64,000 bases of DNA, from assembly GCA_000091205.1 (NCBI GenBank), contig AP006495.2; one strand, written 5' to 3'. Below are positions 14,201 through 64,000 of this stretch, one piece after another. The translations under genes were made by a program, and so were the position numbers. This stretch comes from Cyanidioschyzon merolae. Its lineage: Eukaryota. Each line of letters begins with the position of its first letter. The stretch's first letter is position 1. The notes beneath the pieces are model-generated. The model was not told the DNA's origin. It searched no databases and worked only from the letters and a program-made list of their open reading frames with translations.

Positions 14201-15059
14201 AACCCGATAAAGTCTTGTCTAAAAAAGAATGGGACGGTCTCCCGTAGACAGGCGCGATTTTTTCGTTGCCCATCCGTGCCGCTTCATCCCCGTTCATATG
14301 CACCGTGCGAAAAACGTCACATACTGTGGTATCTCATGGAGTATCGCCCAGAGAGCATTCGGATTGCAACGGAATAACAAGAAAACAGCCTAGTAGATGG
14401 TGTCGGATTGGTTCTTTTCGGGTGCACGACGCTCGGAATGAAGGATACGAGAACGATCGGTCATCCAAGTGCTGAATTTTGAACGAGCGACCTGGACAAG
14501 CGAGGTGTTCTCTTCGCAGGCGAGCGGCGACAGCATTACGTATTTGCACAGCGCCTTCGTCAATGAAGAGAGGACATACCTTCTGCCAGATACCTGAGAA
14601 AAAAATCAAACATAAGCAAAAGAGCTTCCCATTAAAGATAGGCGGGAATGCGCTTCGATCTCTGCGGTTCGACCGGTCGATGCTTCATCTTCAAAATTAC
14701 GAGATAAAAGAGCACAGCTAAGGTAGGCATAGGCCTGCAGCACCTAAGGGAGCGAAATGTTTCGCCTCTATAGAGTCTATATAGATATCTACCGACGCAC
14801 AGGCGCATCCTAGTCGTTTTTGACCGGCACCTGTTATCGGTGTCAGTTGCTCTCCCAGCACACTTCGAGACCGAGAGGCTGCCGCATAGAGTTGTATCGC
14901 GTCAGCCCCTCGGGTCTCGTCTTCAACAACGCACATCGTCTGATCTGGATAGCAGCACTGAAGTCTCGGCTCACGGAAACCATGCGTTTAGTTGCCTCTG
15001 TTTGAACTCACAAGTGCCAGGCGTCCTCGAACGAGCGCCCTCTGTGTCACCACAGTCTC

Positions 15060-16050
15060 GTAATCATCCCGTCAGGCAAACACGTTTTCTCGTCTATCTC
15101 CAATCGACATCTTCTTCTTCTTCGTTGCTTGCTCTTCTGCGCCTGATTGTCGCCGAGAAGGAGATCTTCCACGTTCTTTCCTGGCAGCCGGCGAAACGGG
15201 GCCTCCAGGATCCGCCACGCTCACTTCCATCACTTTATTTTGTTTTGAATATGAACCCGATGTCGAACGCGTCTGCCTTGAACCGCGAAGCATGACTTGA
15301 ATACACGAGTGTGAAGGCTGAAGCACAGCCGACTTGCCGGACGATACGTTGCAATGACTTTAACGCAAATACAGCTCGGACGTCAGAGGAACCCGCTCAT
15401 CATCATCGTGATCGCGTTTCTCCTCAACGGCGAGATACGCATCGCATCCCATGCCTGCCAGATTTGGAGGTGCGCGTATCGACCCCGCTATATAGAAAAA
15501 AGAACACAAACGAACATCTAACTAGCAACGAGATAACGATTTCTTTCCACCGCTACGATCAAAGTCAAACAGAGGAAACGTTTTCCGTATTGTCGAAAGT
15601 TTACCTTCCAGACGAAAGGTCCCGCAAGCCGGACGAGTCGATCGGGCTCTCGCGCCATATTCCTCCGTAGGGGCGGGTGCTGTAATGAGACCTGAGCAAC
15701 TCGTCGGCAACGCAGTTTATTCTGGGACTCGGAGCGGGTAGCCTGCGTCTGCGCGTCGCCCTGGTCGCAGTGGACTCCTAGCAGCTCGCTTCCCGCTGTC
15801 GCAGGCAGTGGATCTGTCAGCACATCTTCCATGCTTCCAGAATGCTGATGAATCTCGATTCCGTATTCACTGAATCATGCCGCAAGCGGACGCCCTCAGT
15901 AGTATCCCAAAGCGGCGCTGTCTCTGTGCTCCATCCGCACCATCTGTAGCGGTGCTATTGCGGGTGCTTACCGCGGGTACTAGATGCTCGACAGAACGTA
16001 CGAAACTACAAGTACGTACAGCAGAATGCATACGTAATGGGACTTGAAGA
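15060..16050 (-). mobile_element. Fragment E: solo ~1 kb 5' region of the element, lacking the nuclease ORF
   Basis: It is collinear with A 35990-36960 and with the B 5' region (e.g. ggtaaactttcgacaatacggaaaacg, ctgcgaccagggcgacgc, cgccggctgccag). There is no homology to ORF segment 1 beyond ~15060. It ends ~200 bp from the start of the 16261 gene. Confidence 0.5.
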
Positions 16051-16260
16051 AAGGATCCAGCATCATGGACGTTTTGTCGATTACCAATACCCATCCCACA
16101 GTCGGGGATCCGCGGTCCATCGAGACGTACTGCCGAATCGCACCAATCAGCGCAATGATCTCCTTGACGCCCGGTATTCGAGCTCCTTCTCTACGATCAG
16201 GAAACGTACGCTTGCAGCGCTGCGTTGCGGTAGGCAGTAGAAGCACGGAGCTCGTTACAA

Positions 16261-22300: not shown

Positions 22301-22970
22301 TGGAGCCTCCAGCGCACGCATTCGATCTTTCCCAATGCCGCAGACGTCGGCTTCGACGTACGGCAAGGTATTTTTTTGGCGGGCACTGAACGAGGTAGTT
22401 GCATATGGTTCATATCTATAAATAACTGTACATATGCATCCCCTGGCGCGAAAATCTCTTTCTCGCCTTCTTCCCCCAGGAATACATGCCCGTCACCAGC
22501 CGCTGGTTACCAAGATCAGCGCCGTTCGATCACCCCCAAGTACCGAGAACCATAGAGTTTAGCCCAGGATCCATGACAAGTTCAAACACAGTCTCTGACT
22601 CTTTCATACCTACCAGGCATCTTTCTTGAGTCCCTCTACCATGATATCATTTCCAAATATCTAAAGGACCAAATACGTCCATAAGCACCATCCCATCATT
22701 TCTATGCATCTCAGAAATCAAGCACCAGTACGTGAACGTACGATCCGATGAGCATTTTCGCGCCTTCTTTCAAACGTGTTGGCGCCTCCCGCGCATCCAT
22801 CCTGCAGAGCGCTGCGGCGCCTCGCGCGAAAGCCAACTGCCCTGGCGCCAATCGACGGACGCAGACCGCCGCTGGCGCTGTGCAAGAGCTCTCGAGCAAC
22901 AACAAGGTACGCGCTTGAACATTGTCGAAGTGGACTTCCCAGCAGAGAGAGCCGAAGATTTGAACCAGCA

Positions 22971-25406
22971 ATGGAGCGGTGTGTAGTGAAACGTGATGGT
23001 CGTCGACAGCCGGTAAAGTTTGACAAAATCACTGCGCGAATCAAAAAGCTGGCCTACGGTTTGGACCCGCTCGTGGACGTCACCGAGGTTGCGCAGAAGG
23101 TGTGCGCTGGTGTATACGACGGGGTGCATACCTCGGAGCTTGATGAGTTAGCTGCTGAAACTGCAGCGTACATGAGCACACGGCATCATGACTATTCGAT
23201 TTTAGCTGCGCGGATCGCGGTAAGCAACTTGCACAAGAACACCGAAAAGTCATTCAGTGCGGTGATGGAACGCCTATATGCCTACAGGTCTCCGAAAACG
23301 AACGATCCAGCGCCGCTGATTGCGAGCGACGTCATTGAAATAGTGCGCCGCCACGCCGAAACGATAGATGGCGCTATCATCTACGACCGCGATTTCTCTT
23401 ACGACTACTTTGGGTTCAAAACTTTGGAGCGCTCGTATCTGTTACGAATCGACGGCAAGGTGGTCGAGCGTCCCCAGCAAATGCTGATGCGCGTGGCGAT
23501 TGGCATCCACAAGGAGGACCTAGATGCCGCACTAGAAACCTATGACTATATGAGTCAAAAGTACTTTACGCATGCGAGTCCGACGCTCTTCAATGCCGGC
23601 ACACCGCGCCCACAGCTCAGTTCGTGTTTCCTCCTGAGCATGACGGAGGACTCCATCGAGGGAATCTATGACACACTGAAGCGCTGCGCAGTGATTAGCA
23701 AGAGCGCGGGCGGTATCGGTCTGGCGATCCACAACATTCGAGCAACGAAATCTTACATTCGCGGAACGAACGGATCGAGCAACGGTATCGTGCCGATGCT
23801 TCGTGTCTTCAATGACACAGCCCGCTATGTGGATCAGGGGGGTGGGAAACGCAAGGGCGCCTTTGCTGTATACCTGGAGCCATGGCATGCTGATATCTTT
23901 GAGTGGCTTGATCTGAAGAAGAACCACGGCAAAGAGGAAGCACGTGCACGAGATCTCTTCTATGCACTTTGGACGCCGGATCTATTCATGCGGCGAGTGG
24001 AGGCCAACGAACAGTGGTCCCTTTTCTGTCCGAATGAGGCGCCTGGTCTTGCGGATGTCTGGGGCGATGCGTTCGACGAACTCTATCAGCGCTACGAGGC
24101 TGAAGGCAGGGCACGAGAGGTGATCCCTGCGCGAAAGCTCTGGTTCTCGATTCTCGAGTCGCAGATTGAGACAGGCACGCCCTACATGCTCTACAAGGAT
24201 CATTGCAACCGGAAAAGTAATCAGCAGAATCTAGGCACGATCCGCTGCTCCAATCTCTGCACCGAGATCGTAGAGTACACTGCACCAGACGAGGTTGCGG
24301 TGTGCAACCTCGCGAGTATCGCTCTGAACAAGTTTGTGGTGCCAGGAGACCGTGAGCGCGGAACTTGTCCCGTATTTAACTTCGACGAGCTCGCCTTTGT
24401 GACTCGCATGGTTACCAAAAACCTGAACAAGATTATCGATGTGAACTTTTACCCCATTCCCGAGGCACAGAACTCGAATCTGCGTCACCGCCCGATTGGC
24501 ATTGGTGTCCAAGGACTCGCTGATGCCTTCATCCTCATGCGGATGCCATTTGAAAGCGATGAGGCTCGTGCGCTGAACCAGGAAATCTTCGAGTGTATCT
24601 ACTACAACGCATTGCAAGCGTCGATCGAGCTTGCGGAGCGCGACGGACCGTATGCCTCTTTCGAGGGCTCACCAGCGGCACGAGGACAGCTTCAGTTTGA
24701 TCTTTGGAACGTGAAACCGACTTCATCTCGTTGGGATTGGGATGCGCTTAAAGAGCGTATCACTCTTCACGGACTGCGTAATTCGCTACTGGTTGCCCCG
24801 ATGCCGACTGCGTCCACCTCGCAGATCCTGGGCAACAACGAATGTTTCGAGCCGTATACCTCGAATCTGTACACCAGGCGCGTGCTCGCTGGAGAGTTCA
24901 CCGTCGTGAATCAACATCTTGTCCGTGACCTGCAGGAGCTCGGCCTCTGGAACCCGCTCGTGAAGAACAAGATCATCGCCCACGGTGGCTCGATCCAGCA
25001 AATCCCTGAGATCCCCCAAGACATACGAGACCTCTATAAGACCGTCTGGGAGGTCAGCCAACGGCGCCTACTCGACCTGGCTGCTGATCGCGGTGCCTTC
25101 ATCGACCAGAGCCAGTCCCTGAACGTTTACATCGCGCAACCAACGATCGGCAAGTTGAGCTCGATGCATTTCCACGGTTGGCGTCTTGGCCTCAAAACCG
25201 GTATGTATTACCTCCGGACGCGACCAGCAGCTGATGCTATCAAGTTCACGCTCGATCAGCGTATTCTCAAGGAAGAGAACCACACCGCTGTCAATGGATC
25301 GCAACTGCCGTGCAATCTCACGCCGCGTACCAGCGCAGCTGAGCAGTTCGCTGCACTCGCCTGCTCCCTAGATAAGAAGGATGACTGCATCGCGTGCGGA
25401 AGCTGA
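22971..25406 (+). CDS. RNR1: Ribonucleoside-diphosphate reductase large subunit (class I R1)
   Basis: [31 protein letters not shown] matches the R1 N-terminal ATP-cone. The active-site block CSNLCTEI is present, followed by the C-terminal redox tail CIACGS. The ORF track starts at 22776, but the conserved R1 N-terminus begins at the internal Met ~22971. Confidence 0.9.
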
Positions 25407-25654
25407 GCTGTTACCGATGATCGACTCTAAACCGTCTCAAATTATCCCATGATCGACTAGGTATGTACCAGAGCGTCTTGACGAATACCTCTTGTCGTGT
25501 TGAGGCACTGATCAACGAGCTTTCTCGTGCCTGCTGAGCTGCAGGTGCAGCGGCACTGGATTATCCACTGGGCGTGTCGTGCGTACCGTGTGTGTCGAGT
25601 CTGGTGGCGGCAACACGTGCGCTGCGTACGTCTTGCCGCGGAAGTGACGAAATG

Positions 25655-26192
25655 CCAAGGTAGTGAGAAACGTAATCCCTGATAGCAAAATGTATATCTT
25701 CGTATTCAATACATGAACGCCTCTGATTCCCTTTGGAGAGAAGGACTATGCGAAGGCACTGAGAAACCTAATCCCTGATAGCATCATGTATATCTTCGTA
25801 TTCAATACATGAACGCCTCTGATTCCCTTTGGAGAGAAGGACTATGCGAAGGCACTGAGAAACCTAATCCCTGATAGCATCATGTATATCTTCGTATTCA
25901 ATACATGAACGCCTCTGATTCCCTTTGGAGAGAAGGACTATGCAGGCACTGAGAAACGTAATCCCTGATAGCATCATGTATATCTTCGTATTCAATACGT
26001 GAACGCCTCTGATTCCCTTTGGAGAGAAGGACTATGCGAAGGCACTGAGAAACCTAATCCCTGATAGCATCATGTATATCTTCGTATTCAATACATGAAC
26101 GCCTCTGATTCCCTTTGGAGAGAAGGACTATGCAGGCACTGAGAAACGTAATCCCTGATAGCATCATGTATATCTTCGTATTCAATACATGA
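25655..26192. repeat. Minisatellite: ~5.5 tandem copies of a 94-97 bp unit
   Basis: The unit is ggcactgagaaac(c/g)taatccctgatagcatcatgtatatcttcgtattcaatacatgaacgcctctgattccctttggagagaaggactatgc(gaa). Unit starts are at ~25754, 25851, 25945, 26041 and 26135. The units are contiguous with no unique spacers. The array is intergenic between RNR1 and the 26265 gene. Confidence 0.85.
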
Positions 26193-26264
26193 AACAATGC
26201 CGTCTCACACCCGAAATCAATTCCGACCGCCTGGCTGCAGCTTGGCCTCGGACCGGGTCAGGAG

Positions 26265-27095
26265 GTGCTGGTGCCTCACGCCCTGAGCATGTCAGGCGCT
26301 GCTCAGAAAACCAAGTCAAAGCACGCAACGTTTACAGAGTGCCTGCAACGGGAAGCGGAACGCGTGCAGCGACGAGAGCCGGCAGCGCTCGCGACCTGGC
26401 TTGCGGAACTTGCCGCTGCGAGCGACGACGCACAACAATCCGAAGAACTAGTTACGGAATGGCACAAGTTTTTCCAAGACTTTGTTGCACGCCAGCAGTT
26501 TCGTGTCTTTGTGACCGGTGATCAGGTGCCAGACCAGGGCGGTCGAGCAATCGCGCTCGCAGTTCGGCACAGCATCCGTCGTTCGGTGGAAACGGAGACA
26601 AAGCCAGAGGTTGCACGGATGACTACCGGAGCTTGCGTTACCGGGGCAGATGCTGCCCAGAAACTGCTCCCGGGGCTGTTACGACCAGACGTGCTTGTCT
26701 TGGCACCGGCAGCGGAGCGGGTGTGTCGGGCAGCGGCTGCAGTGGGAGCGCTTTCGCGCTTCCGCCGCTCCCGTTGGACTTGTTTGAAAGTGATCGCTCG
26801 TCACGAGCGACTAGAAGTTAGCATAGAACGCTGTAAGGCCTTGGCAAGAACACAAGAACGCCATAGGAACGGTGTCATCGTGCTGGGAACGCCTCATCGT
26901 ATCAGCGAGTTGATGCAGCGTCAAGTACTTGGCGCACCGCGGAAAGCACTAGTACTCGATATGAGCCTTGACGTGAAATGCCGCCGTTTGTTGCGTATGC
27001 CTGGTGTACAGCAAGCTGCCCTGCATTGTCTGCGGATGATTGCAAAAGATCTTGCAGGTGATCATAGCCTTCCGGAGCTCGTCTTCTACGCCTAG
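26265..27095 (+). CDS. Hypothetical protein with degenerate DEAD-box-helicase-like motifs (possibly CMS1-like)
   Basis: 276-aa ORF. VLVLAPAAERV, VIVLGTPHRISELM and ALVLDMSLD loosely resemble helicase motifs Ia, Ib and II. The assignment is weak. Confidence 0.3.
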   Translation: MLVPHALSMSGAAQKTKSKHATFTECLQREAERVQRREPAALATWLAELAAASDDAQQSEELVTEWHKFFQDFVARQQFRVFVTGDQVPDQGGRAIALAVRHSIRRSVETETKPEVARMTTGACVTGADAAQKLLPGLLRPDVLVLAPAAERVCRAAAAVGALSRFRRSRWTCLKVIARHERLEVSIERCKALARTQERHRNGVIVLGTPHRISELMQRQVLGAPRKALVLDMSLDVKCRRLLRMPGVQQAALHCLRMIAKDLAGDHSLPELVFYA

Positions 27096-35521: not shown

Positions 35522-37088
35522 AGCAGTCTCACTGTTCGGTTCGTTACAGACAATCCTTCTGTTAGGGATTAAGAAACGCTCCCCAAAATCACCCACGTTG
35601 AGAAAGAAAAAAGAAAACTTGCCTCCAGAGGCTATGCAACGATAGCTTCTAGAGACGTTTCGAATGGTGGCATGGCCTCCGAACCGTTGTACCCCGTGGC
35701 AAGATCGAGTCTGTACATAATTATCCAAAAGTTGAAGGCGCTCGATACGCCGGACAGCGCTGCGCGGCGCTGCTACCGGGACACGTTGCGGCTATCGCGC
35801 GATCGCGTATCGCGTGACTGTCGATTGAATCCTTTTTGTCCAGATATATTCCTTATTTGGACAGAGCGATATGGACGCAGGTTGTTTTTTGATGGCAAAA
35901 CGCTGATATGGACCATGGATGCCAGTCTGGGGGATAGATATTGCAACAAATGAAAGCGCTCAGCAATGTTCACTCTCGTTCCGAGTTCCACGACGCACAT
36001 TTTCGCACGGCTATACTGGTCGCTTTGCACGTTCCCTGGTGCGCCGCATACTGGCAGTGAGCACCCGCAATAGAGCCTATGCTGCTCGTGCGGATACTGA
36101 ACGGAGACAGAGCGGCTTTGCTATATCAGTGGGGGTGTCGGCTCGATGCGTGGTGCATTCGACACGGAACCAGGGTACATTATCATTCTGGGGCCTGCCA
36201 GCTGCGAATGCAGACCCACTGCCTGTGGCAGCGCGAATTGATTCGCAGGGAGTCCTCTGCGACCAGCACGACGCCCAGAAGGAGCTTATCCGCTCCGAGT
36301 CCCAGAGTAACCCGCGTTTCGGACGAGTTGCGTAGACCTCACTACAGCACTAGGGACTGGGGGAAGCGTGAAGCACGAGCCCGGGAGACTCTTGCGGCTC
36401 GCGGGACCCTCTGCTTCTACGGTAAACTTTCGACCATACGGAAAGCTTTTTGCCCCTTTTGACGTTTATCGTAGAGAGGCAAAGACATCTTTATATCGTT
36501 GCTAGGTAGTAGTGAGTTTCAGTTCTACGTTCGATATAGTGCGGTCGGTTAGCGCTCCTCCGTATTCAGCATGCATGGGACACGACTCGCATGTCGTCGT
36601 TGAAGGGAAACACGATCCTAACTATTCGTTGACTTGCTATTCTACAGTACAAGATCTATTTGCGTGAAAGTCGTAGCAAAGTATAGCTTTCAATTCAATC
36701 GCGTGTCAAGCCTCAACTAAGTGTATTCAAGTGATTTTTTGCGGTTTATAGCAGAAGCGTTCAACGTGCGTTGTTTATCCAAAATTAAAAAATGGGAATA
36801 GTATAGAGAAGGAGGTGGAGGATCCTGCAGGCCGAGTGTCGCCGGCTGCCAGAAAAAAACGGAAAATAATGCCGAGTCCAGAAGAAAAGGAGGAGAATAA
36901 GAAGCAAGGGAGGGAGCCCCCGTAGTCAATGGCTGCACGAAAGACGACACTGCGACGACATGGTAGTCGAAGCCTGTCTTCCCAAACATATCAAGGATCC
37001 CTACAAGCAAAAGATGCGAGAGGCCATCAGAAGCCGTATCCATTCGTACTCCAGGTAGGTTCATAAGGTTTCTGGAGGACTGAATCAT

Positions 37089-38931
37089 ATGTTGAGGGAG
37101 ATATACGATGACGTTACGGACACCAAACCGGTCGAGGTTCCGGAAGAATTTTTCGACAAGACCTTTATTCGTCACCTGATGGTTAGAACAGGAGAAACGT
37201 CGGGGGGAAATGATGGAGTGCATGCACTCCACGAAAACTACGCAGAATACCACTCCAATGGTACTCGATACAGCGTTCACCCGTGTATTTACGAATACGG
37301 GGCGAAGAAGTACCTCACGAACCTGAAGAACCATATGACGATGAACCTCGAACGTTTCATGATACGCACCGTGTTTGCACTTTATCCGGGCCTGTCTTGC
37401 AATAGGATATGGGGCATCATCGAAATCATCTCGAACGATCGTCAACATGAAGATGAGATCGAATTCGTCGACAAGAAGACATCACGCAGGAGAAAGAATG
37501 AGGATTCTGTAATCCGTACGGTTATGCAAGAGCACCGTGCGGTACTGGGCTGGCGAATCCAACAGACAAGATATCAGAGTTGAAAAAAGATAAGGAAAGA
37601 TACTATCGCCTCGTCCCGCGCCATGTTGTGTTTCTGGACCGAGAACTCGAACGCAAGGCAGAGGTGAAGCTGGGTGAGGAAAACAATGAAGAGTGGGAGA
37701 AACGGAATGCAGTCCTAATGGCGAAGCGCTTCAACGTGGTTCCAATGTGCAAGATCAAGTCACATTTTATGACTATCGACTTCGGCGTCCTTTACGGCAT
37801 AATGAAGGAGATCAGTCCGGAGTTCAATGTTAGTAGGGAGGAACTCTCCGGTGAAAACCGGGATACGTACAGTAAGAAGAATATCTTCTATTTCAAACGT
37901 CTCAAAGTGAGCAAACAAAAGGTATTTGCTGGGTTGATCGAAATCGATGGAGTAGTCATGTGTGTACACTATCGGCGGTTGACGAAAGATCGTCCAGTCC
38001 CGCCCTCTGCTGCGCCCTCGACGAAGCATGAAGAAAACGAACAAGCGGATCCTGCGACCGAGAAAGTGCGAGGTACCGACTTTGACGTTGGCACGGACCC
38101 CGGCAACGCAAATATCATAAGCATCGCAGAACCCAAGCGTGCCGTGCGGAAGATGGTATTGACGGTAAATTACGTCGGAAAGGCATGCGTCTTTTGACAT
38201 CCTCGAGAGCAAGATACTATCGAGAATCGGGAATCATGAATGCGAAGAACAAATTCGACAAATAGAATTCAGGAATGAAAGAACACCTGGAAGCTTTGAG
38301 CGAGGTGACAAGCCGAGGAGCGGACTTTGAAGCTTTTCTGAAATTCGTGGAAGTTCGCGTTGCTCATTGGGATGCGCTATGGAAAGAGTACACCAAGCCC
38401 AGTTGGGCTCGTCTGCGTATGAATCTATACGGTGGGAGGCAGCGGGCGATCGCGAACTTTTTCAATCAGTTGAGCGCCTTGAAGGAGAATGAAAGTCAGA
38501 AGCTTGTTGTAGCATACGGAGCAGGGCGCTGGAAGACCCAAAAGGGGTGTATGCCAGCTCCGACGACGAGGGTGAACAAGGAGTGCGCAAGGCGTTTCAT
38601 TACGATACCCGTAGATGAGTTCCGAACATCGTATACACACCATGAACTGGGGTGTACATTTCAAAGAGTGGAGCTGGAAAAGTGTCAATGGAGCCCTGAG
38701 GAAATCGCAAAGTACGGACTGCTGACGGAGGAGCAAAGGGAAAGGAGGGCAAAAGTTCAAGGGCTACTCGCACTGGTGAGTACAACCAGTGACGGCAAGA
38801 AACGTATGGAGTTTGTGAACCGAGATTTTAACGCCGCTCTCCATATACGGAGATGTGCGGTGCTGGAGGAAAACCCCCAGAGTAGACAAGAGGGAATTTT
38901 GATGGAGAACCTCTCAAGTCGAACTATATGA
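37089..38931 (+). pseudogene. TnpB/Fanzor-like RuvC nuclease ORF (copy A), split into three frames (37089-37583, 37580-38197, 38275-38931)
   Basis: RuvC-I-like [19 protein letters not shown] is present. The zinc-finger region IPVDEFRTSYTHHELGC...C follows. The RuvC-III motif KKRMEFVNRDFNAALHIRRC is present. A frameshift relative to copy B lies at AEPKRAV/EDGID. Confidence 0.6.
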
Positions 38932-39090
38932 GAAAAAATTGGAAGCAGTAGTAGGTGGCCGGTCCAAAAAAACTGGGAGGCGTCTGCACGTCAGTTGGAG
39001 ACGTTTTGTCTAGGGCGCGTTCACCGCCACTACTGTACACCGTTGGCGTCGTTCGAGTGCGAAAGGCGTTTGCAGTTGGCTTCGTCACGC
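38932..39090 (+). ncRNA. Candidate guide-RNA (omega-RNA-like) scaffold / right-end block of the TnpB-like element
   Basis: The ~150 nt immediately 3' of the ORF stop is the best-conserved part of the element across A, B and C (gcagtagtaggtggccggtcc ... ggcgtctgcacgtcagttggag ... gtctagggcgcg ... gccactactgtacacc ... ggcgtcgttcgag). The internal complementary arms cagtag..gtggc / gccactactg can form a ~10 bp stem. Confidence 0.35.
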
Positions 39091-53149: not shown

Positions 53150-54040
53150 CTAGTTCCCAAAGGCGCCCAGCAGTTGCTCAACAGCAGGCTTGACACGTTT
53201 TTCATACCAGGACGGATCCGGACAGAGCTCCTGGATTTTGCGCGCCATTGCTTGCCAGCCGTCTTTAACACGGCTCAAATCCAGCCCAAGTTCATGGTAG
53301 AGCTCCAGTAGTAATGCAACGTTGCGTCGGTGCAAAAAGTCAACTGGCGGTGCATTCTCCTCCTGAGCCAGCACCGCATAACTCACAATGCGAAGCTGAT
53401 CGCGCATGTCGTTGGCGAGCTGTTCCTCGATGGCTTCGGTGCGGCTCAGCGTTGCCAGATTTTTTCCCTCGTAGCATTCTTTCTTCACCCTTGCAGCCGC
53501 AATGCCAGCTTCGATGATCGCCTCCGCATTGGTCGTAATGACTGCCGCCACGTCAGCGCCCTGAAAACTCCTCCTACCACGATATGACTCAATCTCTTCG
53601 ATAGGGACGAACATCAGCGCTGTATCATTTTTCCGGCAGGTGTTCGCGGCTTCTGTATGGAAGCCGTCACCACACCGAAGAAGCGACTTGTGACTGCGCA
53701 AAAACGCCCGCAGGGCCTGCGCACGCCTCGACATGTGATCCGTCTTTGGGACCGAAGTTGGAGCGGGCGCACCATTGTTCTGGGAAGCAGCACCAGCGCC
53801 GTCACGCGGGCCGGCACCCACCGGGAACGGTGGAGTTAATGTCGAGGTGATCTGCAGCGCCCGACAAGCACGCTTTGCGTTCGCCAACGAGCATGGGGAA
53901 ACCCGCCGGAGCGACCTCCCGTGCGAGGAAAGCCAACGGCTACTCCAAACGAAGCCAGTCGACGCCTTCCTAACCAACGCTACACTTGAAGCCTTTCGAT
54001 GTTTCGGTGAATAATGCAAAAAAATGTTTGTAAAAGCCAT
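53150..54040 (-). CDS. Hypothetical conserved protein with Arg/Ser-rich N-terminal presequence
   Basis: The ORF track gives 53150..54067, apparently with a non-ATG start. The first ATG gives MAFTNIFLHY... The N-terminus looks like a mitochondrial presequence. The internal block RCGDGFHTEAANTC...VITTNAEAIIEAG is unassigned. Confidence 0.35.
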   Translation of the reverse strand: MAFTNIFLHYSPKHRKASSVALVRKASTGFVWSSRWLSSHGRSLRRVSPCSLANAKRACRALQITSTLTPPFPVGAGPRDGAGAASQNNGAPAPTSVPKTDHMSRRAQALRAFLRSHKSLLRCGDGFHTEAANTCRKNDTALMFVPIEEIESYRGRRSFQGADVAAVITTNAEAIIEAGIAAARVKKECYEGKNLATLSRTEAIEEQLANDMRDQLRIVSYAVLAQEENAPPVDFLHRRNVALLLELYHELGLDLSRVKDGWQAMARKIQELCPDPSWYEKRVKPAVEQLLGAFGN

Positions 54041-54049
54041 GTTCGAGCG

Positions 54050-54195
54050 CACGACACGCACCAACAAACGCCCCTCTAAAGTCGAACGACGCCAGCGGTA
54101 TGCAGTAGTGGCGTGTGACGCGCCCTAAACAAGACGACTCCAACTGACGTAGAGACGCCCACCAGGCGTTCTCGGCGGTCCATGTACTAATGCTT
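54050..54195 (-). ncRNA. Candidate omega-RNA-like 3' block of copy B
   Basis: It is homologous to 38932-39090 (ggcgtctctacgtcagttggagtcgtcttgtttagggcgcgtcacacgccactactgcataccgctggcgtcgttcgac). Confidence 0.3.
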
Positions 54196-56082
54196 TCAAT
54201 CATGTCTCATATAGTTCAACATTGGGAGGTTGTCCAATAAAGTTCGCTCTTGTCCATTATGAGGTCTTCTTTCCATCACCGCACATTTGTTTATATTAAT
54301 TGCGCCATAAACATCTCGGTTCACAAACTCCATACGTTTCTTGCCATTAGAAGTTGTACTTTCTAATGCGAGCAATCCTCGAACAATCGCCCACCTTTCC
54401 ATTTGCTCTTCCGTCAGCGCTCCGTACGTTTTTATATCCTCAGGGCTCCGCTGGCACTTTTCTCTTTCGGCTCTCTGAAGTGTACATCCCAACTCGTGGA
54501 TTGTATACGATGTTCGGAACTTATGTACAGGTATCCTAGCGAAACGCCTTGCGCAATCCTTATATATTCTTGTCGTGGGAGCTGGTGTAGTCCCTTTTTT
54601 GGGCGCCCAGCGCCCTGCTCTGCACGCTACTACGAGCTTTTGACTTTGATCCTCTTTGAGGGCACTGAACTGATTGAAAAAGTTGACGAATCCACGCTGC
54701 TTCCCACAGCACAGATACATTCGCGATAGAGCCCACATGGGCTTTAGATATTCTTTCCAAAGCGCCTCCCAATGAGCAACGCGAACTTCCATGAATTTCA
54801 GAAAAGCTTGAAAGTCTGCTCATCGGATCGTCAGCTCGCTCGAAGCTCTCAGGTGCTCCTTGATTTATGCATTCCATGTCTCAGTTTTCTTCCTCGCATT
54901 CTTTATACCGGATTCTCGATAATATCTAGTTCTTGAGAACCTCAATAGACGCATGTCGCTCTCACGTAAGCTGCCGTCAATGCCATCTTCCGCACGCTTG
55001 GGAGCAACGATGGTTATGCTATTCGTATTCGCAGGGTCCGCCCCAACGACAAAGTCGTTATCCTGCACCTCCTGCGTCGCTGGATCTGCCTCTTTGATTT
55101 CTTCATGCTTCGCAGAGGGCGAAGCGAAAGGCACGATAGGACGATCCATCTTCAACCGCCAATAGTGCACACACATGGCTACACCATCGGTTTCGACCAT
55201 CCCAGCGAATACCTTTTGTTTGCTCACTTTGAGACGTTTGAAATAGAAGATACTCTTCTTACCGTATGTCTCACGGGCTTCACCGGAGAACTCCTCCATT
55301 GTAGCATCGAACTCGGGACTGATCTCTCTCATGATGCCATGAAGGGTTCTGGAGTCGATACTCACAAAATGTGACTTGATGTTGCACATTGGAACCACGT
55401 TGACGCGCCTCCCCATTAGAATAGCCTTCCGTCTCTCCCACTCTTCATTTGTCTCTACACTCAGCTTCATTTCCGCCTTGCGTTCGAGCTCTCGGTCCAG
55501 AAACACGAAATCGCGCAGAATGAGGCGATAGTATCTTTACTTGTCTTTTTTCAACTCTGATATCTTGTCTATTGGATTCGCCAACCCCAGTACCGCACGG
55601 TGCTCTTGTATAACCGCACGGATCACAGAAGCTTCATTCGTGCTCCTGAGTGACGCCTTCTTGTCGACGAATTCGACCTCATCTTCATACTATCGATCGT
55701 TCATGGTGCCATTGATCATCGCCCATATTCCTTTGCGAGAGACGCCCGTGTGGAGTGCAAACACGGCGCATATCATGAAACGTTCGAGGCTCTCTGTTAA
55801 ATGGTTTTTCAGGTTCGTAACGTACTTCATCGTTCCGTATATGTAAATATTCGAGTCACCCTTGCATCGAGTACCCTCGAAGCAGAATTCCGCGAAGATT
55901 TCGTGAAGAGTGCGAACCAGCTCATTTTCCCTCTGCGCTTTCCCTGTACCAAGCATCAAGTGACGAATATGTGTCTGGTCGAAGAGCTTGTCCGGAAGCT
56001 CGACCGTTTCCATGTGCGTCACGTCGCGATACGTCTGCATCACCAAATGCATCAGTCCTGTCGACGCCTTGACAATACTCAT
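54196..56082 (-). pseudogene. TnpB/Fanzor-like RuvC nuclease ORF (copy B), single frame interrupted by stops plus one frameshift
   Basis: The segments 55690-56082, 54865-55506 and 54196-54792 share a frame. The motifs [37 protein letters not shown] and EFVNRDVYGAININKC are present. A 1-nt deletion near FVF/LDRELERK was seen by manual translation. Confidence 0.6.
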
Positions 56083-57413
56083 GGAGTACGAGTTGACATG
56101 TTTTTTGATAGTGTCTCGAAACTTTTTCTTATATGGATATTCTTTATACGTTTACGAAGACCGGCGTTCACCACCATGTTGTCATAAAGTAGTCTTTCTT
56201 GCATGCATCGACGTAGGGCCTCCCCCTTTTGCTTCTTCATCTCCCCCTGTCCTCTGGACTCCACACTGTTTTCGGTATTTTTTTTCCGGCAGCCGGCGAT
56301 AATGGGCCTACAGAATCGTCGACTAGCTTTTTCATAACTTTCTTTTTTTAGCTTTTCTTCTCAAAACAGAACTCTCTTTGAACGCGTCTATTATGTGTTG
56401 CGAGAAAACTCTTGAATACACTTGTCTTAGGTTCGAAACACATATGAACTGAAAAACTGTACTTTGCTAGGGCTCGAACGGAAATCCAACTATTACAGCT
56501 AAACAACACGCTCCTGATCACGATAGCGTTTTCCTTCAACATCGGCGGCATTCGCGTCGTGTCTCATGCCTGCCTGATTTCCCACGGGTGCTAACCGATA
56601 GCTCTATTTAGAACAAAGAAAAAAGAACAGAGACTCGCAGTCCGCGAGCAACGATATAGCGATTTCGTACCCGCTCTACAATAAACGTTGAAAGAGGAAA
56701 ATCATACAGAATTTTAGAAAGCTTACTTTCCAGGCGCAAGGTCCAGCGAGCCGGACGAGTATGCAAGGCTCGTGCTCCATGCTCCCCCAGTGGCAAGCGC
56801 TTTAGTGCGACCTGACCAACTCATGCACCAAGCAGTTTATTCTTGCGCGAGGAGCGGGTATGGTGCAAGTGGTCATCGCATTGCTCGAAGATGATTCCTA
56901 GTATATTGCTTCGCGCTGCCGCAGGCTGCACGTCTGTCTCCGCAGTTTGCAGGCTCCCTGAATGATAACGAGTCCGGATTCCGTCTCAGTGGAGCCACAC
57001 CTCGAGACGACGCCCTCAGTAGTCTCGCAAAGCCATTCTTTCGCTGTGATGAGGCTGCACCTTCGGTGTAAGCAATAGGGAAGGCTCGGCACGCTAGAGA
57101 ACTACAAAACGGCCAGCACATCTCGAACGAATTATAGGTAATGGAGTTTGAAAGTAGGCTGAAGAATATCGAGCGCTTTCATTTCTTTCAATATTCATTC
57201 CGCTGTCAGCGATCCATAAAGCAAGTCAACATTTTATCATCAAATGAAACGCCAGAATCAGGTGCTCACCATTTAGGAACACGCGCCGACGCAAATATCG
57301 CCGCCGTTGGTCGGCAGGTACGGCCCGACCTCGCGGGGCAGGCTTCAACTTTGCTGAACGTTCGCTGAACCTCACGTTTCAATTTCTTTAAAGCGTCTGC
57401 TGAGGCTTGTCCA

Positions 57414-58460
57414 ATGGTTGACGAGAAAGGCGATCTCTGTTTATGGGAGCATCTGGTGGCTGGCGGCGGGGCGACACTCTCCGCCGTCAGCGTTATGCAC
57501 CCGTTGGACACGATCAAAATCTACATGCAACGCGCTCAGGTGGCAACCGCAGGCGGCAGCGCTAACGTCCGGCCGACAATGCTCGGCGCTGCGCAAGAAA
57601 TCTTGGCTCAAAGAGGGCCCGGAGGATTTTACGCCGGCCTAGGTGCCAATCTCAGCGGGCAAGTGCCAGCAGGCGCGATCAAGTTTGCAACTTACGAGCT
57701 GCTGAAGCAACACGCCGTGCAGAAGCGGCTCCCGGCTGCAGCACAGGGTTGGGGCGAAGTCGCCTCTGCAGCGCTGGCGTTTCTGGCCTGCTCTGTAGTT
57801 CTGGTCCCCGGTGAGGTCGTAAAGAGCCGCCTCCAGGCCGGTTTGTATCCGAGCTTCCGCGAAGCGCTTCTGCGTATCATTGAGCAGGATGGCGTTTCTG
57901 GACTCTACAGGGGCTACTGGGCCACAGTTACGCGTGACGTCCCGTATACGATGCTCGAGTTTGGGCTATACGAGCAGTTTAAACGAGCGTGCATGTGGTC
58001 TGTTAAGCGCGATCGACTACATTCCTCAGAGGAATGGACCATGGGTGGCCTCGCTGGCGGCGTAACCGGTTGGTGTACCACCCCGCTCGATGTCATTAAG
58101 ACGAAACTCATGACGTGTGCACGCTCGCAATACCGCGGCTACTGGGACGCCGCTCGTGACGTTTGGCATCGAGAAGGGCTGAGCGGCTTCTTCACCGGGG
58201 GACTCGCCCGCGTGCTGTGGTTGGTCCCGTTCACAGCGGTGTTCTTCGGCAGCCATGAGATCATCAAGCGATTTTTACGAAGTCGTAAGCGGCAATATTC
58301 TACGTTGCGAAGCACCAGAATCCCTCGGATGGATCCGGAGGCGTCTGCGTCCTCTAACTGCACCTGTCGATACAAGTCCATCAAGTGGTTCGGATCGAGT
58401 ACTCTTATCTGTGACGTCCGGATCAAGCCTGCGTATCGCTCGCCTCGACATCCGTTCTAG
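57414..58460 (+). CDS. Mitochondrial carrier family protein (possibly S-adenosylmethionine carrier-like)
   Basis: Three MCF repeats are present, with PLDTIKIYMQ and PLDVIKTKLM signatures. GFYAGLGANLSGQVPAGAIKFATYE resembles SAM-carrier/PET8-type carriers. The ORF tail beyond ~aa 300 is probably read-through into the 3' flank. Confidence 0.75.
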   Translation: MVDEKGDLCLWEHLVAGGGATLSAVSVMHPLDTIKIYMQRAQVATAGGSANVRPTMLGAAQEILAQRGPGGFYAGLGANLSGQVPAGAIKFATYELLKQHAVQKRLPAAAQGWGEVASAALAFLACSVVLVPGEVVKSRLQAGLYPSFREALLRIIEQDGVSGLYRGYWATVTRDVPYTMLEFGLYEQFKRACMWSVKRDRLHSSEEWTMGGLAGGVTGWCTTPLDVIKTKLMTCARSQYRGYWDAARDVWHREGLSGFFTGGLARVLWLVPFTAVFFGSHEIIKRFLRSRKRQYSTLRSTRIPRMDPEASASSNCTCRYKSIKWFGSSTLICDVRIKPAYRSPRHPF

Positions 58461-58684: not shown

Positions 58685-60667
58685 TCAGCTATCCGCTAAG
58701 TTCGTATTCGCGTCTAGGGGCCGCCAGCCAAGGTCTTGCAAGGCCGTCAAAGAAGCCGATACGCTAGAGCTCCGCCAGCGCGGCGACTTCCAGATCGAGC
58801 CGCCCCGAGTCTCCTCCGTCCAGAGCGGAGCACCGGTATCCCCAACGTGATAGCTGTTCTCGATTCGTACGTTCGTTACACCGATCTGGGCAAACGCTTT
58901 CGTCAGCTGCGCGAAGGGATCCTCGGTGACGCTCCAGTGCGGATCCGCAATGGATACCGAGCGCCCTGACGACACCGAATGTGAGATCGGTGAGTTATCG
59001 GGCAAGCATGGGTTCCCCGTCGCTGGTTTCCTTCGTTCGCCAACAGCACCGAGAGAGACAGAACAAGAGCGCCTAATCGCGCCGCTTGCCATTTGAATTG
59101 CCGGGTCCCAGGAGATGAACGCCTGCTGTGTCAACGGTTCGACCTCTGGGTGTAGCGCTGTACGATTACCTGTAGCGTCACGTTCTGACAAAGAAATACG
59201 CTCGTATTCGTCAAAAGAACGCCATGCGTTGACCATAGCCCCTGATGCTTGAGGCGGTGCCCCTTCGGCTGCATCACCCACAAGCCTTGTTGAGCGTTCT
59301 GAGGCCGCGCGCGTCCCCAGGCCGGGCTCCGCATGCCACGACAAGGGCGAACTGCTTCCCCAGATGCATCCAAGCTTAAACAGATCGTTCTCTCTTGCTG
59401 CACTAATCTTGGGAGAGGCGAACTCGTCAAAGACGAAGTCGTCCTCATTTGGACCCGCCTCGGCACCCGAGATACTCCCTGCGTCCTGCCTCGCATCGAT
59501 ATCAGAGAGCGGCTGCAGCGTCGCGTTGGAGCAGGGCTTCTTCGTCTGCGTACAGGTCGCGGATCGAAACGCATGCAACGGTGGTGGAGGCCCGTACCTA
59601 CTCTGGAGAAAAGCCTCCCGGGATATGGCATCTGTGTTGGAGGCAAACTCATGTCGGTATAAACACGCGGGATCCACGCAGCGTTTCTGGGTCGGTGGCT
59701 GCGGCGGTTTTGCGCCGTTGGATGCCCGCTTTCGAGATATGACCTTTGCGCCGGCGAATGCAACCGCTACCGTATCGCTTGCATCGAGTGGCCTTATTGA
59801 CGGGTTCCGTCCAGATGTCCATTGTGCAGACTCAATCTGGCTCTGTTTCCATTCAACGAATGTTTTCAGGTATTGCTCACAGGCCTGGACAAATGCCTCA
59901 CAATAGCGCACCGTGCCATAGGAGACGTGCACTTCATGGCCTTGCCAGCGCGCCCCGTCGTAAAGCTGTATTGCGCGGGTGGCTGCCGCCTCATCTGCAT
60001 ACTCCACATAGACGCCAGTTCCCTGGACAAAGAGAACTCGTTGGATTCTCCCCGTCTTTCCGAACATGTCCGAGCGCCGAATTGTGTGCTCGGACCAGAG
60101 AGATTGGTGCAATCCACGAATGCAGATCAAGTTCCGCTGCACGATAAAGGTCTGACGCATTGTTCGTATCCGCTTGGCGAGCTCGTACTCCCGCTGCTCC
60201 TGACGTTCCCTCTCTAGCTGTTCTTGGCGAAGCTGTCGCTCCTTTTTGCGCCTGTTTATTTCACGTAGTCGTTCCTTCTCTGCAAGACGTTCATCACTAA
60301 GCTCCTCGCGGAGTTGAAAGCGGCTCTCGTCGTACGGCGTCCGGCACGCGGGGCACCGGGGGACCTGGCCCTCCTCGCACGCTGTGCGAAGGCGACTCAG
60401 GCACCACAGGCACACTTGATACCCGCACGCGCAAGGAAAGAATGCTTTCTCTGCGGCATCCAGTTCCTCAAGGCAGAGCGGACACTCGCTGCTCTCTTCC
60501 GAAGGTTCGCAAGGTGCCTCATCGGCTGACTTTCCAGAAGCGTGACGGTGCGTAGCCTGGCGCCGCGTCCGTCCGTTTCTTGCCCGCCCGCCTGTCGGCT
60601 GCCTAACGCGTTTCAAAGAAAAAGAACTGTCAGAGGTATCCACAAGTTTGGCACCGCTGAACGCCAT
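58685..60667 (-). CDS. CCR4-NOT complex subunit 4 (NOT4/MOT2)-like RING E3 ligase with RRM
   Basis: The N-terminal C4C4 RING CPLCLEEL...FPCACGYQVCLWC...CPACRTPY is followed by a coiled-coil and an RRM-like block (TFIVQRNLICIRGL...GKTGRIQRVLFVQ), which is the NOT4 architecture. Its start codon abuts the 3' end of repeat copy C. Confidence 0.65.
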   Translation of the reverse strand: MAFSGAKLVDTSDSSFSLKRVRQPTGGRARNGRTRRQATHRHASGKSADEAPCEPSEESSECPLCLEELDAAEKAFFPCACGYQVCLWCLSRLRTACEEGQVPRCPACRTPYDESRFQLREELSDERLAEKERLREINRRKKERQLRQEQLERERQEQREYELAKRIRTMRQTFIVQRNLICIRGLHQSLWSEHTIRRSDMFGKTGRIQRVLFVQGTGVYVEYADEAAATRAIQLYDGARWQGHEVHVSYGTVRYCEAFVQACEQYLKTFVEWKQSQIESAQWTSGRNPSIRPLDASDTVAVAFAGAKVISRKRASNGAKPPQPPTQKRCVDPACLYRHEFASNTDAISREAFLQSRYGPPPPLHAFRSATCTQTKKPCSNATLQPLSDIDARQDAGSISGAEAGPNEDDFVFDEFASPKISAARENDLFKLGCIWGSSSPLSWHAEPGLGTRAASERSTRLVGDAAEGAPPQASGAMVNAWRSFDEYERISLSERDATGNRTALHPEVEPLTQQAFISWDPAIQMASGAIRRSCSVSLGAVGERRKPATGNPCLPDNSPISHSVSSGRSVSIADPHWSVTEDPFAQLTKAFAQIGVTNVRIENSYHVGDTGAPLWTEETRGGSIWKSPRWRSSSVSASLTALQDLGWRPLDANTNLADS

Positions 60668-60823
60668 TCAAAAGTCGAACGATGCCGAAGGTGTACAGTA
60701 GTGGCGGCAAACGCGCCCTAGACAAGACGTCCTCAGGCGACGTGCAGACGCATCTGTCTTTTTCGACCGGCCACCTACTACTGGTTCCAACTTTGTCTCA
60801 TACAGTTCCACTTTGAGTGATTG
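60668..60823 (-). ncRNA. Candidate omega-RNA-like 3' block of copy C
   Basis: ccagtagtaggtggccggtcg...gtctgcacgtcgcctgaggacgtcttgtctagggcgcgtttgccgccactactgtacacc...ggcatcgttcgac is nearly identical to copy A. It ends at the NOT4 ATG. Confidence 0.3.
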
Positions 60824-62852
60824 TCAAGCAAAGTCCACTCTTGGCCACTCTGGAGGTCTTTTCTCCAGCACCGCACATTTCCTTGTATTGATTGCGGCAT
60901 TAAAGTCACGATTCACGAAATCAATCCCTTTCTTGCCACTATTAGTTGTACTTAATAATGCAAGTAGCCCACGAACTTTTGCCCTCCTTTCCATTTGCTC
61001 ATCCGTCAGCGGTCCGTATTTTGCTATTTCCTCAGGACTCCGCTGACACTTTTCCATCTCCACTGTCTGAAGTGTACAATCAGTCCATGGTGCGTATAGG
61101 ACGTTCGGAACTCATCCACAGGTACTGTAACGAAACGCCATGCGTATTCCTTGTACGTCCATGTCGTCGGAGCTGGCGAAGTCCTTTTTGGGTCTTCCAG
61201 CGCCTTGCTCCGTACGCTACTACCAGCCTATGGCTTTCATCCTCCTTCATGGCACGGAACTCACTAAAAAAGTTCGCGACTGCACGCTGCTTCCCACAAT
61301 ACAAATTCATACGCAAACGAGCCCACCGGGGCTTTGTATTCTCCTCCCACAGCGCATCCCAACGAGCAACGCGAACATCCATGAATTTCAGAAAGAGGTT
61401 ATGTCCGCGCCGCGGCTCGTCACCTCGCTCAAAGCTTCCAGGTTCTCTTCCATTCATGCATTTCAGCTTCCAAATTTCTTCCTCGCATTCTGTATAACGG
61501 ATTCTCGATAGTATCTTGCTCTCGAGAGCCTCAACAGACGCATGTCTTTCTGACGTAAGTTACCGTTAGTACCATCTTCCGCACGCTTGGATATTGCGAT
61601 TGTTATGATATTCGTGATCCCAGGGGTTAAGGCCGACGACAAAGTCGTTTTCGTGGGGATTATACGTTCCATGGCTGGTCTTTTTGTGTTTGTCCTTCGG
61701 CAGGGGCGAAATGAAGACGGGATAGGGCGGCCTGCCTTCAATCGCCGGTTACGTAGACATATGGAAACCCCATCGTTATCGATGGCTCCCGTGAGCACCT
61801 TTTTTTTTTTGGTCGGCCACGGACGCTTGAAATCGAAATTATTCTTCCAGTAGGTTTCCGGTCTTCGCTGGTGACCTCTTTGTTTCTTAAATCGAGCTCT
61901 AGAGAGATCTCATTGCTGAAGGCTCAAAGGGCTCTAGAGTCGATATTCACAAAATGTGACCTGAACTCGCATAACCGGAAGGCAATGAAGCGCATCCGGA
62001 GAAGCTCATCAATGCCGGTCCTCCAATCCGTCATTCTTTCCACACTCAGATCCATGTCGGCCTTGCGTTCGAGATCTCGGTCCAAAAACATATAGTAGGG
62101 CAGGAAGCGGGGGTAACATCCCTCTTCGTTTTTTCAGATATCTGACAATTTTTCTCTTGGGTTGAAATGCCCCAAGACCGAACGATGCTTTAGAAGAGTC
62201 GCGCGGAAAACAGAAGCCCTATTTTTGGAACTGCATGATGTCCGCTTGTCGACGAATTCGATCTCTTGTTCATGCTCGCGATCGTTCTTGATACCATCGA
62301 AGATTGCCCCTATCCCTTCGCGGAACATGCCCGAGAACAGCGCCAAGAAGATGCGTAGCAAAAAATAGTCGATGTTTACGATCTTATACTTCCTCACATA
62401 CGTGAGGTAGCTCATTGCCCTGTAATCGTTAATGTCTGCGTTACTCTTCGTCCAGCACCGTTGAAGCGGTATTTGGAATAATTTTTGAGGAAAGCATGAA
62501 CTCGCTCATTTCTCCAAGATATATCTCCACAGCAGCATCAGGGCGGATGATGAAAATCTTTTTGAAAAATTTTTCCGGAAACGTTACTTGTTCGACGTGG
62601 GTTTCGACGCGATGCATCTCCCCATTCCAAACGCATCAGTCGAAAAAGAAGCGATACAAACATACCTTGAGCAAGATGCTCCATGATTTCTGACGGCCTC
62701 TCGCAACTTTCCTTTGTACGGATTTGTAATATGCCCAAGACGACGGGATTTAAACACCACTTCTTCGCTCTGTCGTCTTTCATGCAGTCTTTGAGGTTGG
62801 GCTCTAGTTTCTTGCGCGTCTTCGTCTTACACGGTTCTTCTACACTCGGCAA
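60824..62852 (-). pseudogene. TnpB/Fanzor-like RuvC nuclease ORF (copy C), heavily frameshifted
   Basis: The RuvC-III motif GIDFVNRDFNAAINTRKCAVLEKRP is present. ITNIITIAISKRAEDG is a frameshifted RuvC-I. An N-terminal segment EIEFVDKRTS is shared with copies A and B. Confidence 0.55.
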
Positions 62853-64000
62853 AGCTCTTTGTTCGCCCCCGACAGCCGGAAATACCGGCCATCCGAAACA
62901 TCACTACCTCGAGTACCATAAGTACGGATTATTTATAAAAAACACTTTGCACGCTTCTGCATTAAACGGCGGAATATCAGGTATATACTTTTACTTGAAT
63001 ATTGAAACAGTATTGAAGAGAAACATATATTTTGCCACGATTTCAACACAAACACTACATGCCCCTATACAGCTGGTGATCAAAAAGTAGTCATTCTCGC
63101 GATTATGTTCACCGGCGAGACATATTGAGTATTCTGACACCCAAAAAAAGTGGAGCGCGTACGGGCAAAAAAACGCAGAGAAGAAAGAGAAACATAAAGA
63201 TTAAAGACACCGAGTTAGCAGTTTCACTTCATAACTATGGTAAACCTTAAAAAGAGAAACGTTTTGGGTATGGTCTAACAATTACCTTAGAGATGGAGAG
63301 ACCTACAAACCGGAAGACGCAACCTGCCCTTGCACTAAATGAGCCAGACTGGCAAGAAAGTTGACGCACCTGAAAATCTCGTACGAATCGCGTTTGGTTC
63401 TAGGACTAAGAGCGGGTGTGCTGCGTATCGCTGTCACCTTGGTGGCGGTGGAATCTTAGCACATGGTTTCGCGCCACCGCAGGCAGAAGCACTAAATTTC
63501 ATGCTTGAGGGCTCCCAGAAATATAAAATAGCCCTGATTTCTGGTCGCGAGAGCGAAGCCTCCCCCGAAGCACTCAGTGGAATGCCGAAACTGTCCAGTT
63601 TCAGTAGCGCATCCGCATCAGCTATACAGATGGTACGGCGCATGTTCAGGCAGGGATTTGGCGTAAAAAGGAAGCGTGAAACGGACAGTAGAGCCAAGAC
63701 TAAATAAAGGCGATGGTACGAACAGTGATTCTTTGGCATAATAAACGCATTCCCGACACCAATATCGATCCGGGGATCACATCTATCTGGTCATTGAACG
63801 ATTTATCAAAGATACAAACCGTTACACGGGAAGGAATTCCTTAATGGATATTCTGTTCTAGGCATCACGATGAGCGATACATACAAACACAGTTCATGAT
63901 ACCGAGAAACTTCCCTAGTGACTCTAGTACATTAAACATCGCAATGACAAATGCTCCCGCGCTATAACCAAATACCGGATAGAATCGGGGGAATGGGGGG

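Follow-up and report, generated by a model that had tools for sequence, protein, structure and literature searches.

The closest described relative of the repeats considered here is CMe-1A, a Fanzor1-encoding element of Cyanidioschyzon merolae that is present in ~150 copies of ~3 kb, with ~80% identity between copy and consensus (Bao and Jurka 2013, PMC3627910). Terminal inverted repeats (TIRs) are absent from it, its target-site duplications (TSDs) could not be determined, and its 5' 635 bp form a separate element, TE-N2_CMe; the same paper is silent on insertion sites relative to genes, on RNA structure at the 3' end, and on host transcripts. We analysed a 64,000-nucleotide (nt) stretch of DNA (the window), which is nuclear and comes from C. 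merolae or a very close strain. Its repeats match the CMe-1A family when compared with the published description, as opposed to the consensus sequence. Two of them, copies B and C, lie at the starts of a phycobilisome-domain gene (CMM332C) and of NOT4, respectively. The interpretation we favour, and consider probable, is that B and C are old, inactivated CMe-1A-type Fanzor1 copies whose 3' ends front co-oriented genes and supply them with mRNA leaders and, most likely, with a promoter. The element type was already known; neither placement at start codons nor contribution to host leaders is mentioned in the papers searched.

BLAST self-comparison of the window reveals three full copies, A (~35882-39080, plus strand), B (~54057-57250, minus strand) and C (~60652-63815, minus strand), and one partial copy, E (15172-16146, minus strand), with inter-copy identities of 72-75%. 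Full copies share a layout of a non-coding 5' block of ~1 kb, an open reading frame (ORF) of ~670 amino acids (aa), and ~140 nt of 3' block past the stop codon. The structured 3' block is ~240 nt in all and overlaps the ORF end. The window has only three 3' blocks; copy E, of the TE-N2_CMe type, consists of the 5' block without a 3' block. The repeats thus share with CMe-1A and TE-N2_CMe the species, a length of ~3 kb (3.15-3.2 kb here), copies ~75-80% alike (72-87% in our comparisons), the lack of TIRs and detectable TSDs, a Fanzor1 gene, and a separate short 5' element. All three full copies are inactivated, each by stops or frameshifts. Copy A has two frameshifts and intact RuvC motifs. The gene beside its 3' end is convergent with it, so that the two 3' ends face each other, an exception to the gene-start pattern described below. 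Copy B, delimited by self-BLAST and family BLAST, comprises three parts on the minus strand: an omega-RNA-like 3' block (54057..54300) that aligns with 33 other copies, a Fanzor1 pseudogene (54196..56208) recognised by three-frame translation and by the homology of the family profile to solved Fanzor1 structures, and a TE-N2_CMe-type 5' non-coding block of ~1 kb (56209..57250) that aligns with A, E and family loci. The pseudogene occupies a single frame with five in-frame stops, and its RuvC-II glutamate is replaced by lysine (VHKFRTS). Copy C is likewise decayed, and its 3' end overlaps the NOT4 start.

At the level of sequence, the repeat-encoded protein is confirmed as a Fanzor1 by its RuvC motifs and by profile matches to solved structures. 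The catalytic positions of these motifs (D of DPG, E of DEFRTS and D of NRDxNAAxNI) are invariant across 53 relatives and are present in copy A. We counted 58 close relatives and, at E up to 1e-3, 2,864 cluster representatives. A profile built from the 53 relatives, which include the C. merolae-type protein P0001, matches PpFz1 (9cf0, E = 7.6e-24), SpuFz1 (8gkh, 2.7e-16) and GtFz1 (9cer, 5.5e-11). A shallower 10-sequence profile found nothing significant in the Protein Data Bank, nor did Pfam and NCBIfam scans of single Fanzor-type proteins. PF07282 (TNB/zinc ribbon) matches 15 of the 53 relatives (best E = 9.6e-11); the C. merolae-type proteins, which lack clear CxxC pairs, fall below threshold (E = 0.23). 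An AlphaFold model of P0001 from the 10-sequence alignment was unusable (predicted local distance difference test score 34). It should also be noted that, upstream of RuvC-I, the Fanzor ORF carries a variable tandem repeat of ~22-aa acidic, lysine-rich units (55038-55113 in the window; also in P0001, P0007 and P0009). At 55038-55113 the window and the environmental contigs L091 and L093 differ by one 75-nt unit, and P0009 has several units more than P0007.

We defined the element ends from 80 family loci in metagenomes. At the 5' end a T-run precedes GATGACAAAACGTTTACATTGACCATGGATCCCAG, and copy B carries the motif GATGATAAAA at 57241. The 3' end reads ...CGCCACTACTGTACACCGCTGG-CGTCGTTCGA-CTTTC-GAACGGCGTT and continues into a short G/T-rich arm (e.g. 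GATGGTG) that pairs with CACCGYTGG, mostly by G-U wobble, and the resulting hairpin reaches up to 19 bp. In another subfamily the terminal hairpin differs in sequence, CAACGTTTTTC-TTTT-GAAAGGCGTT, and pairs as well, and the 3' arm of copy C, CAGCGGTG, is complementary to the family consensus 5' arm, CACCGCTG. Because the terminal arm completes the hairpin beyond GGCGTT, the true 3' end of the element is 7-10 nt past this motif. In copy B, GGCGTT is at 54072-54067, the hairpin spans 54057-54099, and its arm reaches ~54057. In 28 of 34 copies the terminal 74 nt form a more stable structure when folded in sense orientation than in antisense (p = 5e-5), and stems P1-P3 of the 3' block are 81.6% paired, compared to 35-55% in slid controls. 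The full 3' alignment yielded a poor RNAalifold consensus, as subfamilies carry the terminal hairpin in different registers, and Rfam and tRNA scans of the region returned no match. The fold and position of the 3' block suggest a putative omega-RNA-like role. Target-site duplications were not found, the longest word common to a copy's own flanks averaging 5.1 nt versus 5.2 nt for mismatched flank pairs, and no target motif or target-adjacent motif could be defined in either flank of family copies.

Two further features of the ends were observed. GGCGTT directly precedes the 5' end of B (57248-57253, minus strand) and that of the family locus L056 (~3170) and is absent at the other 5' ends examined; this is probably a coincidence. 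In addition, four loci (L054:4283-4388, L074:683-772, L078:425-516 and L088:1234-1328) contain a partial 3'-block copy of ~90-100 nt, ~3.4 kb upstream of their own 3' end and followed by conserved GGGCTCGATGTACGGGTTAGGCTCTTGAAA. Such copies may be remnants of a tandem arrangement, direct terminal repeats or an alternative 5' module.

The position of family 3' ends relative to genes was scored for 47 unique 3' ends, counting a 3' end as gene-adjacent if a same-strand ATG-initiated ORF of 100 aa or more has its start in the interval from -12 to +113 nt relative to GGCGTT. The null consisted of random intergenic positions and orientations on the same contigs, with the same ORF criteria. True 3' ends are gene-adjacent in 28 of 43 cases, against 10.7% for the null (p = 2e-17); for 3' ends with the canonical terminus the count is 21/35 (p = 2e-12). 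When null positions are drawn from anywhere, not just intergenic DNA, the expectation is 18%, still well below the 60-65% observed. The median distance from 3' end to ORF is 33 nt, and 26 of 35 neighbouring genes have the same orientation as the element (p = 0.003). None of the 30 adjacent ORFs is related to another. All 10 of those tested are different housekeeping genes, among them ATP synthase beta, glutaredoxin, M18 aminopeptidase and KTI12. For KTI12, whose ATG is 15 nt from GGCGTT, the Pfam profile starts at residue 1; this and the conservation of the MAF start of CMM332C in Cyanidiococcus (see below) indicate that the ATG starts are genuine. The family 3' ends are therefore gene-adjacent far more often than under the null. 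The initial annotation had raised the possibility that the element targets promoter-proximal sites. Our data show a strong, orientation-specific bias for the position just 5' of start codons, which may arise by insertion or by retention.

Copy B fills the divergent promoter region between CMM332C and a mitochondrial carrier gene, as had been proposed from the sequence, covering ~3.19 kb of the 3,373 nt (95%) between the ATGs at 54040 and 57414. CMM332C (53150..54040, minus strand) encodes a 296-aa phycobilisome-domain protein (PF00502) and has its poly(A) site at 53016. The carrier gene (57414..58460, plus strand; Pfam Mito_carr), which is S-adenosylmethionine carrier-like, diverges from the 5' end of B. 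The products of these two genes share 90%-identity clusters with C. merolae 10D CYME_CMM332C (296 aa) and BAM81150.1, respectively. The ORF 53150-54067 does begin with a non-ATG codon inside the element, a TTG in the terminal hairpin of B; this start at 54067 is an artefact of mechanical ORF extension. The first ATG of CMM332C (MAFTNIF, 54040) had been attributed to the element and proves not to be derived from it. It lies 27 nt past GGCGTT and ~17 nt past the hairpin end, and together with at least 8 nt of leader it is orthologous to the Cyanidiococcus gene (CTCGACATGGCG there, CTCGAACATGGCT in the window), with the leader CTCGA(A)CATGGC orthologous in both species. The Cyanidiococcus protein begins MAFVQSLL, so that MAF is common to both. 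Since the MAF start and leader are conserved in element-free Cyanidiococcus, and the 10D annotation is also 296 aa long, we conclude that the ATG at 54040 is host DNA, with a host leader from 54041 to ~54056 (minus strand). The Cyanidiococcus start, ATGGCGTTTGTG, resembles the element end, GGCGTTTGTTGG; we considered this likeness and put it down to the MAF codons.

The nearest other named genome is that of Cyanidiococcus yangmingshanensis, whose carrier protein is 82% identical. It retains the gene order helicase, bromodomain, phycobilisome-domain gene, carrier and NOT4, and the B and C sites are empty, with no element sequence there. The spacing from phycobilisome-domain gene to carrier is 964 bp in Cyanidiococcus, and this intergenic DNA does not align with the window. 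Without B, host intergenic DNA amounts to ~190 nt in C. merolae (54041-57413) versus 964 nt in Cyanidiococcus (L007:9036-10001); either the region was already short or host sequence was lost with the insertion. The window shares 98-99.5% identity with environmental contigs, among them some from Yellowstone. Polymorphic empty sites were not found among the C. merolae-like contigs examined (L091 and L093, with L094 for C; ~98% identity), all of which carry the elements.

The 5' ends of A, B and E had been described as lying ~100-250 bp from gene starts. This is correct for B (~165-172 nt to the carrier ATG) and for E (~136-144 nt to the ATG at 16282). It is incorrect for A, which is ~360 nt from the likely IRE1 ATG (35521, a signal-peptide start) and ~154 nt away only when measured to the TTG start in the ORF track. 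A divergent upstream gene is found 144-481 nt away in 10 of 14 family cases, which is not significant; the head-to-head arrangement reflects the shortness of divergent intergenic regions.

At copy C, the ATG of NOT4 is inside the terminal hairpin. NOT4 (58685..60667, minus strand) encodes a RING E3 ligase with a zf-RING_4 domain at residue 61, and its ATG (60667-60665) overlaps the conserved GGCGTT (60665-60660), in agreement with the initial annotation. It is the ATG of GAATGGCGTT; other copies carry GAAAGGCGTT or GAACGGCGTT at this position. An in-frame TGA is directly upstream and there is no other in-frame ATG ahead of the RING domain. The codons that follow (GCG TTC AGC GGT G) are the 3' arm of the C hairpin, with ~5 codons inside it. 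Cyanidiococcus NOT4 is 706 aa long, compared to 660 aa, with ~35 extra N-terminal residues and poor alignment before the RING domain. We looked for a remnant of the ancestral NOT4 N-terminus beyond the 5' end of C and found none. Insertion of C probably replaced this N-terminus, with a start codon recruited inside the terminal hairpin (GAAAGGCG to GAATGGCG).

Transcript evidence comes from short single-gene-unit contigs that recur in many Joint Genome Institute samples and Logan runs. One of these (L098) runs from 54272 to 53016 and then has 22 A where the genome reads CGTTAC, and L097 is alike. The non-templated poly(A) tails identify the contigs as polyadenylated complementary DNA (cDNA). 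A Yellowstone study reported poly-A and RiboMinus metatranscriptomes in which a C. merolae 10D-like alga predominates. Contigs for CMM332C start at 54297 (L090), 54272 (L098), 54248 (L097), 54192 (L099) and 54063. Apart from the last, which is at the element 3' end, these starts are 125-230 nt inside B, and none is further in. Contigs of the same sample series that span both the carrier and NOT4 end at 60682-60898, i.e. 15-238 nt inside C, and at 56897-57352 on the other side, up to ~350 nt inside the B 5' block. Some carrier transcripts accordingly begin in the B 5' block, antisense to the element (contig ends 56897-57217). As cDNA contigs start inside B and contigs covering NOT4 reach into C, element sequence forms the 5' leaders of host mRNAs, and the 3' block of B, read in sense orientation, is the leader of the CMM332C mRNA. 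Contigs reach a similar maximum depth in B (230 nt) and in C (238 nt), which suggests that transcripts start or are processed at a defined site. Chimeric joins at conserved 3'-block words, or fold-back ends, occur in several cDNA contigs (L096:1-118, L001:3612-3782, L003:1-128 and the ends of L006); L096 begins with an unrelated coding-like sequence, rich in lysine, that is joined at GGGCGCG (54125).

Of the two contributions to host genes suggested initially, donation of 5' untranslated regions (UTRs) is supported by these contigs, and donation of promoters is probable. The suggestion that start annotations beside the element are artefacts applies to the TTG start of the ORF track and fails for the ATG starts. 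For annotation, this means that start codons and 5' UTRs beside these repeats should not be dismissed, and that non-ATG ORF extensions into the element should be.

We propose the following model for how B and C contribute to their neighbours. The family 3' end characteristically lies 0-110 nt upstream of a co-oriented host start codon, and the last 230-240 nt of the element serve as 5' leader of the host mRNA. Host transcription would most likely begin at a promoter that is located in the element's 3' part and reads outward, and would cross the element end into the gene. The same outward promoter would, in an active copy, make the guide RNA. At B, the ATG and ~17 nt of leader are original host DNA. 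Several observations weigh against this model. Contig ends are lower bounds on transcript 5' ends, so read-through from further upstream is possible, and two contigs (L101 and L102), which may be genomic or transcript-derived, span all of B. Covariation in stems P1-P3 does not exceed shuffle controls. Copy A and ~1/3 of family copies are not beside a gene start, and the 3' block is no better conserved in gene-adjacent copies than in others. The family was sampled from metagenome contigs of C. merolae-like algae, as opposed to a full census of a single genome. If the element drives these genes, a mobile RNA-guided nuclease module now belongs to the promoter architecture of a eukaryotic genome that is among the most compact.

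Several other explanations for the position bias were considered. Chance placement in a compact genome, combined with ORF-calling artefacts, is very improbable. Intergenic regions are indeed short, the TTG start at 54067 is an artefact, and the head-to-head 5' arrangement is not significant, all of which speaks for this explanation; however, both the intergenic and the any-position null refute it for 3' adjacency, and start codons are validated by an ortholog and by the start of a Pfam profile. A possible but doubtful alternative is targeted integration, in which the machinery picks sites just 5' of start codons in sense orientation, candidate routes being the single-stranded DNA of open promoter complexes and pairing to the terminal hairpin, and element-driven host expression is a by-product. 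The precise position and orientation-specificity of the 3' ends fit such a process, and the combination of a subterminal 3' hairpin with absence of TIRs and TSDs resembles single-strand transposons. However, no target motif was found in the flanks and the element encodes no transposase. The relationship between intactness and adjacency can be read both ways: gene adjacency is less frequent among the eight most intact copies than among decayed ones (3/8 versus 18/26), a trend that would favour selective retention and is not significant (p = 0.16), and 3/8 is still above the 10.7% expected, in keeping with a preference at insertion.

The same trend is pertinent to selective retention, to which we give similarly low credence. 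Here, insertion would be wide, and in a deletion-biased, compact genome only copies that are indispensable as promoter or leader would persist. Gene adjacency is enriched among decayed copies (9 of the 12 most decayed), host mRNAs with element leaders exist, and B and C are pseudogenes yet have been kept in three independent environmental contigs at ~98% identity. However, the intactness trend falls short of significance, gene-adjacent copies show no extra conservation in their 3' blocks, and an element landing 10-30 nt from an ATG would need to serve as a promoter at once. A more far-reaching reading, which we regard as unlikely, is that Fanzor1 elements actively home to sites just before start codons in sense orientation, with the guide-RNA promoter doubling as the host-gene promoter and producing fusions of omega-RNA scaffold and mRNA in which the guide is the gene's own 5' leader. 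If this were true, ~100 genes (~2% of the genome) would be expressed as omega-RNA scaffold-mRNA fusions, a previously unseen coupling of an RNA-guided nuclease element to host gene expression.

Other features of the window were also noted. CMM332C is a nuclear gene conserved in Cyanidiococcus. Residues 156-281 of its product form a phycobilisome (globin-like) domain, and its N-terminal extension is long, basic and rich in serine; red-algal phycobiliprotein subunits are normally plastid-encoded. Between the ORFs 22776-25406 and 26265-27095 is a tandem array (25562-26229) of ~7 units of 96 nt, alternate units being 97-99% identical. Two pairs of diverged repeats (148-469/959-1286 and 810-951/14890-15032; 67-71% identity) are unrelated to the Fanzor ORF. 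One of the pairs adjoins copy E, and family loci also match 14800-15170. C. merolae is transformable by homologous recombination.

Among known systems, a close parallel in organisation is TnpB with the omega-RNA of IS200/IS605 elements, together with the Fanzor1 proteins SpuFz1, PpFz1 and GtFz1. Here, too, a predicted RuvC-type nuclease with significant profile homology to the solved Fanzor1 proteins is encoded, a structured non-coding region overlaps the ORF end and extends to the element 3' end, and a transcript continuing past that end would bring flanking DNA as guide. Unlike in IS200/IS605, the would-be guide flank is the 5' leader of a host gene and the window copies are pseudogenes. The element encodes neither TnpA nor any other transposase and has no second ORF. 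IS200/IS605-type elements carry a Y1 HUH TnpA and subterminal hairpins at both ends and insert 3' of a short target motif. The present element is not of this type in its ends: a hairpin was found at the 3' end only, the 5' end consists of a T-run and then GATGACAAAACG, and the left flanks have no common motif. Helitrons begin with TC and end with CTRR, have a hairpin 10-12 nt from the 3' end, insert between A and T and, when autonomous, encode RepHel. A Helitron was considered on account of the 3' hairpin and rejected, as the terminus is ...GGCGTT plus a hairpin arm and not CTRR, flanking bases vary, and the element contains no RepHel.

With respect to insertion sites, the family is comparable to Ty3, Ty1, Tf1, the P element, murine leukaemia virus (MLV) and Helraiser, whose insertions concentrate at promoters or transcription start sites. 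In compact genomes, promoter-proximal insertion is regarded as a safe-haven strategy. Transcription factors or chromatin tether the integrases or transposases of those elements, most of which generate TSDs. In contrast, the C. merolae family lies only tens of nucleotides from the ATG, in a specific orientation; to our knowledge, no enzyme has been described that moves the C. merolae Fanzor1 element. In its effect on the host, the family resembles cases of genes driven by long terminal repeats (LTRs), miniature inverted-repeat transposable elements (MITEs) and Helitrons, in that element sequence forms the host mRNA leader and, at NOT4, also the start codon. Such cases are usually sporadic, whereas the arrangement described here extends to ~60% of a ~150-copy family and would involve ~2% of genes.

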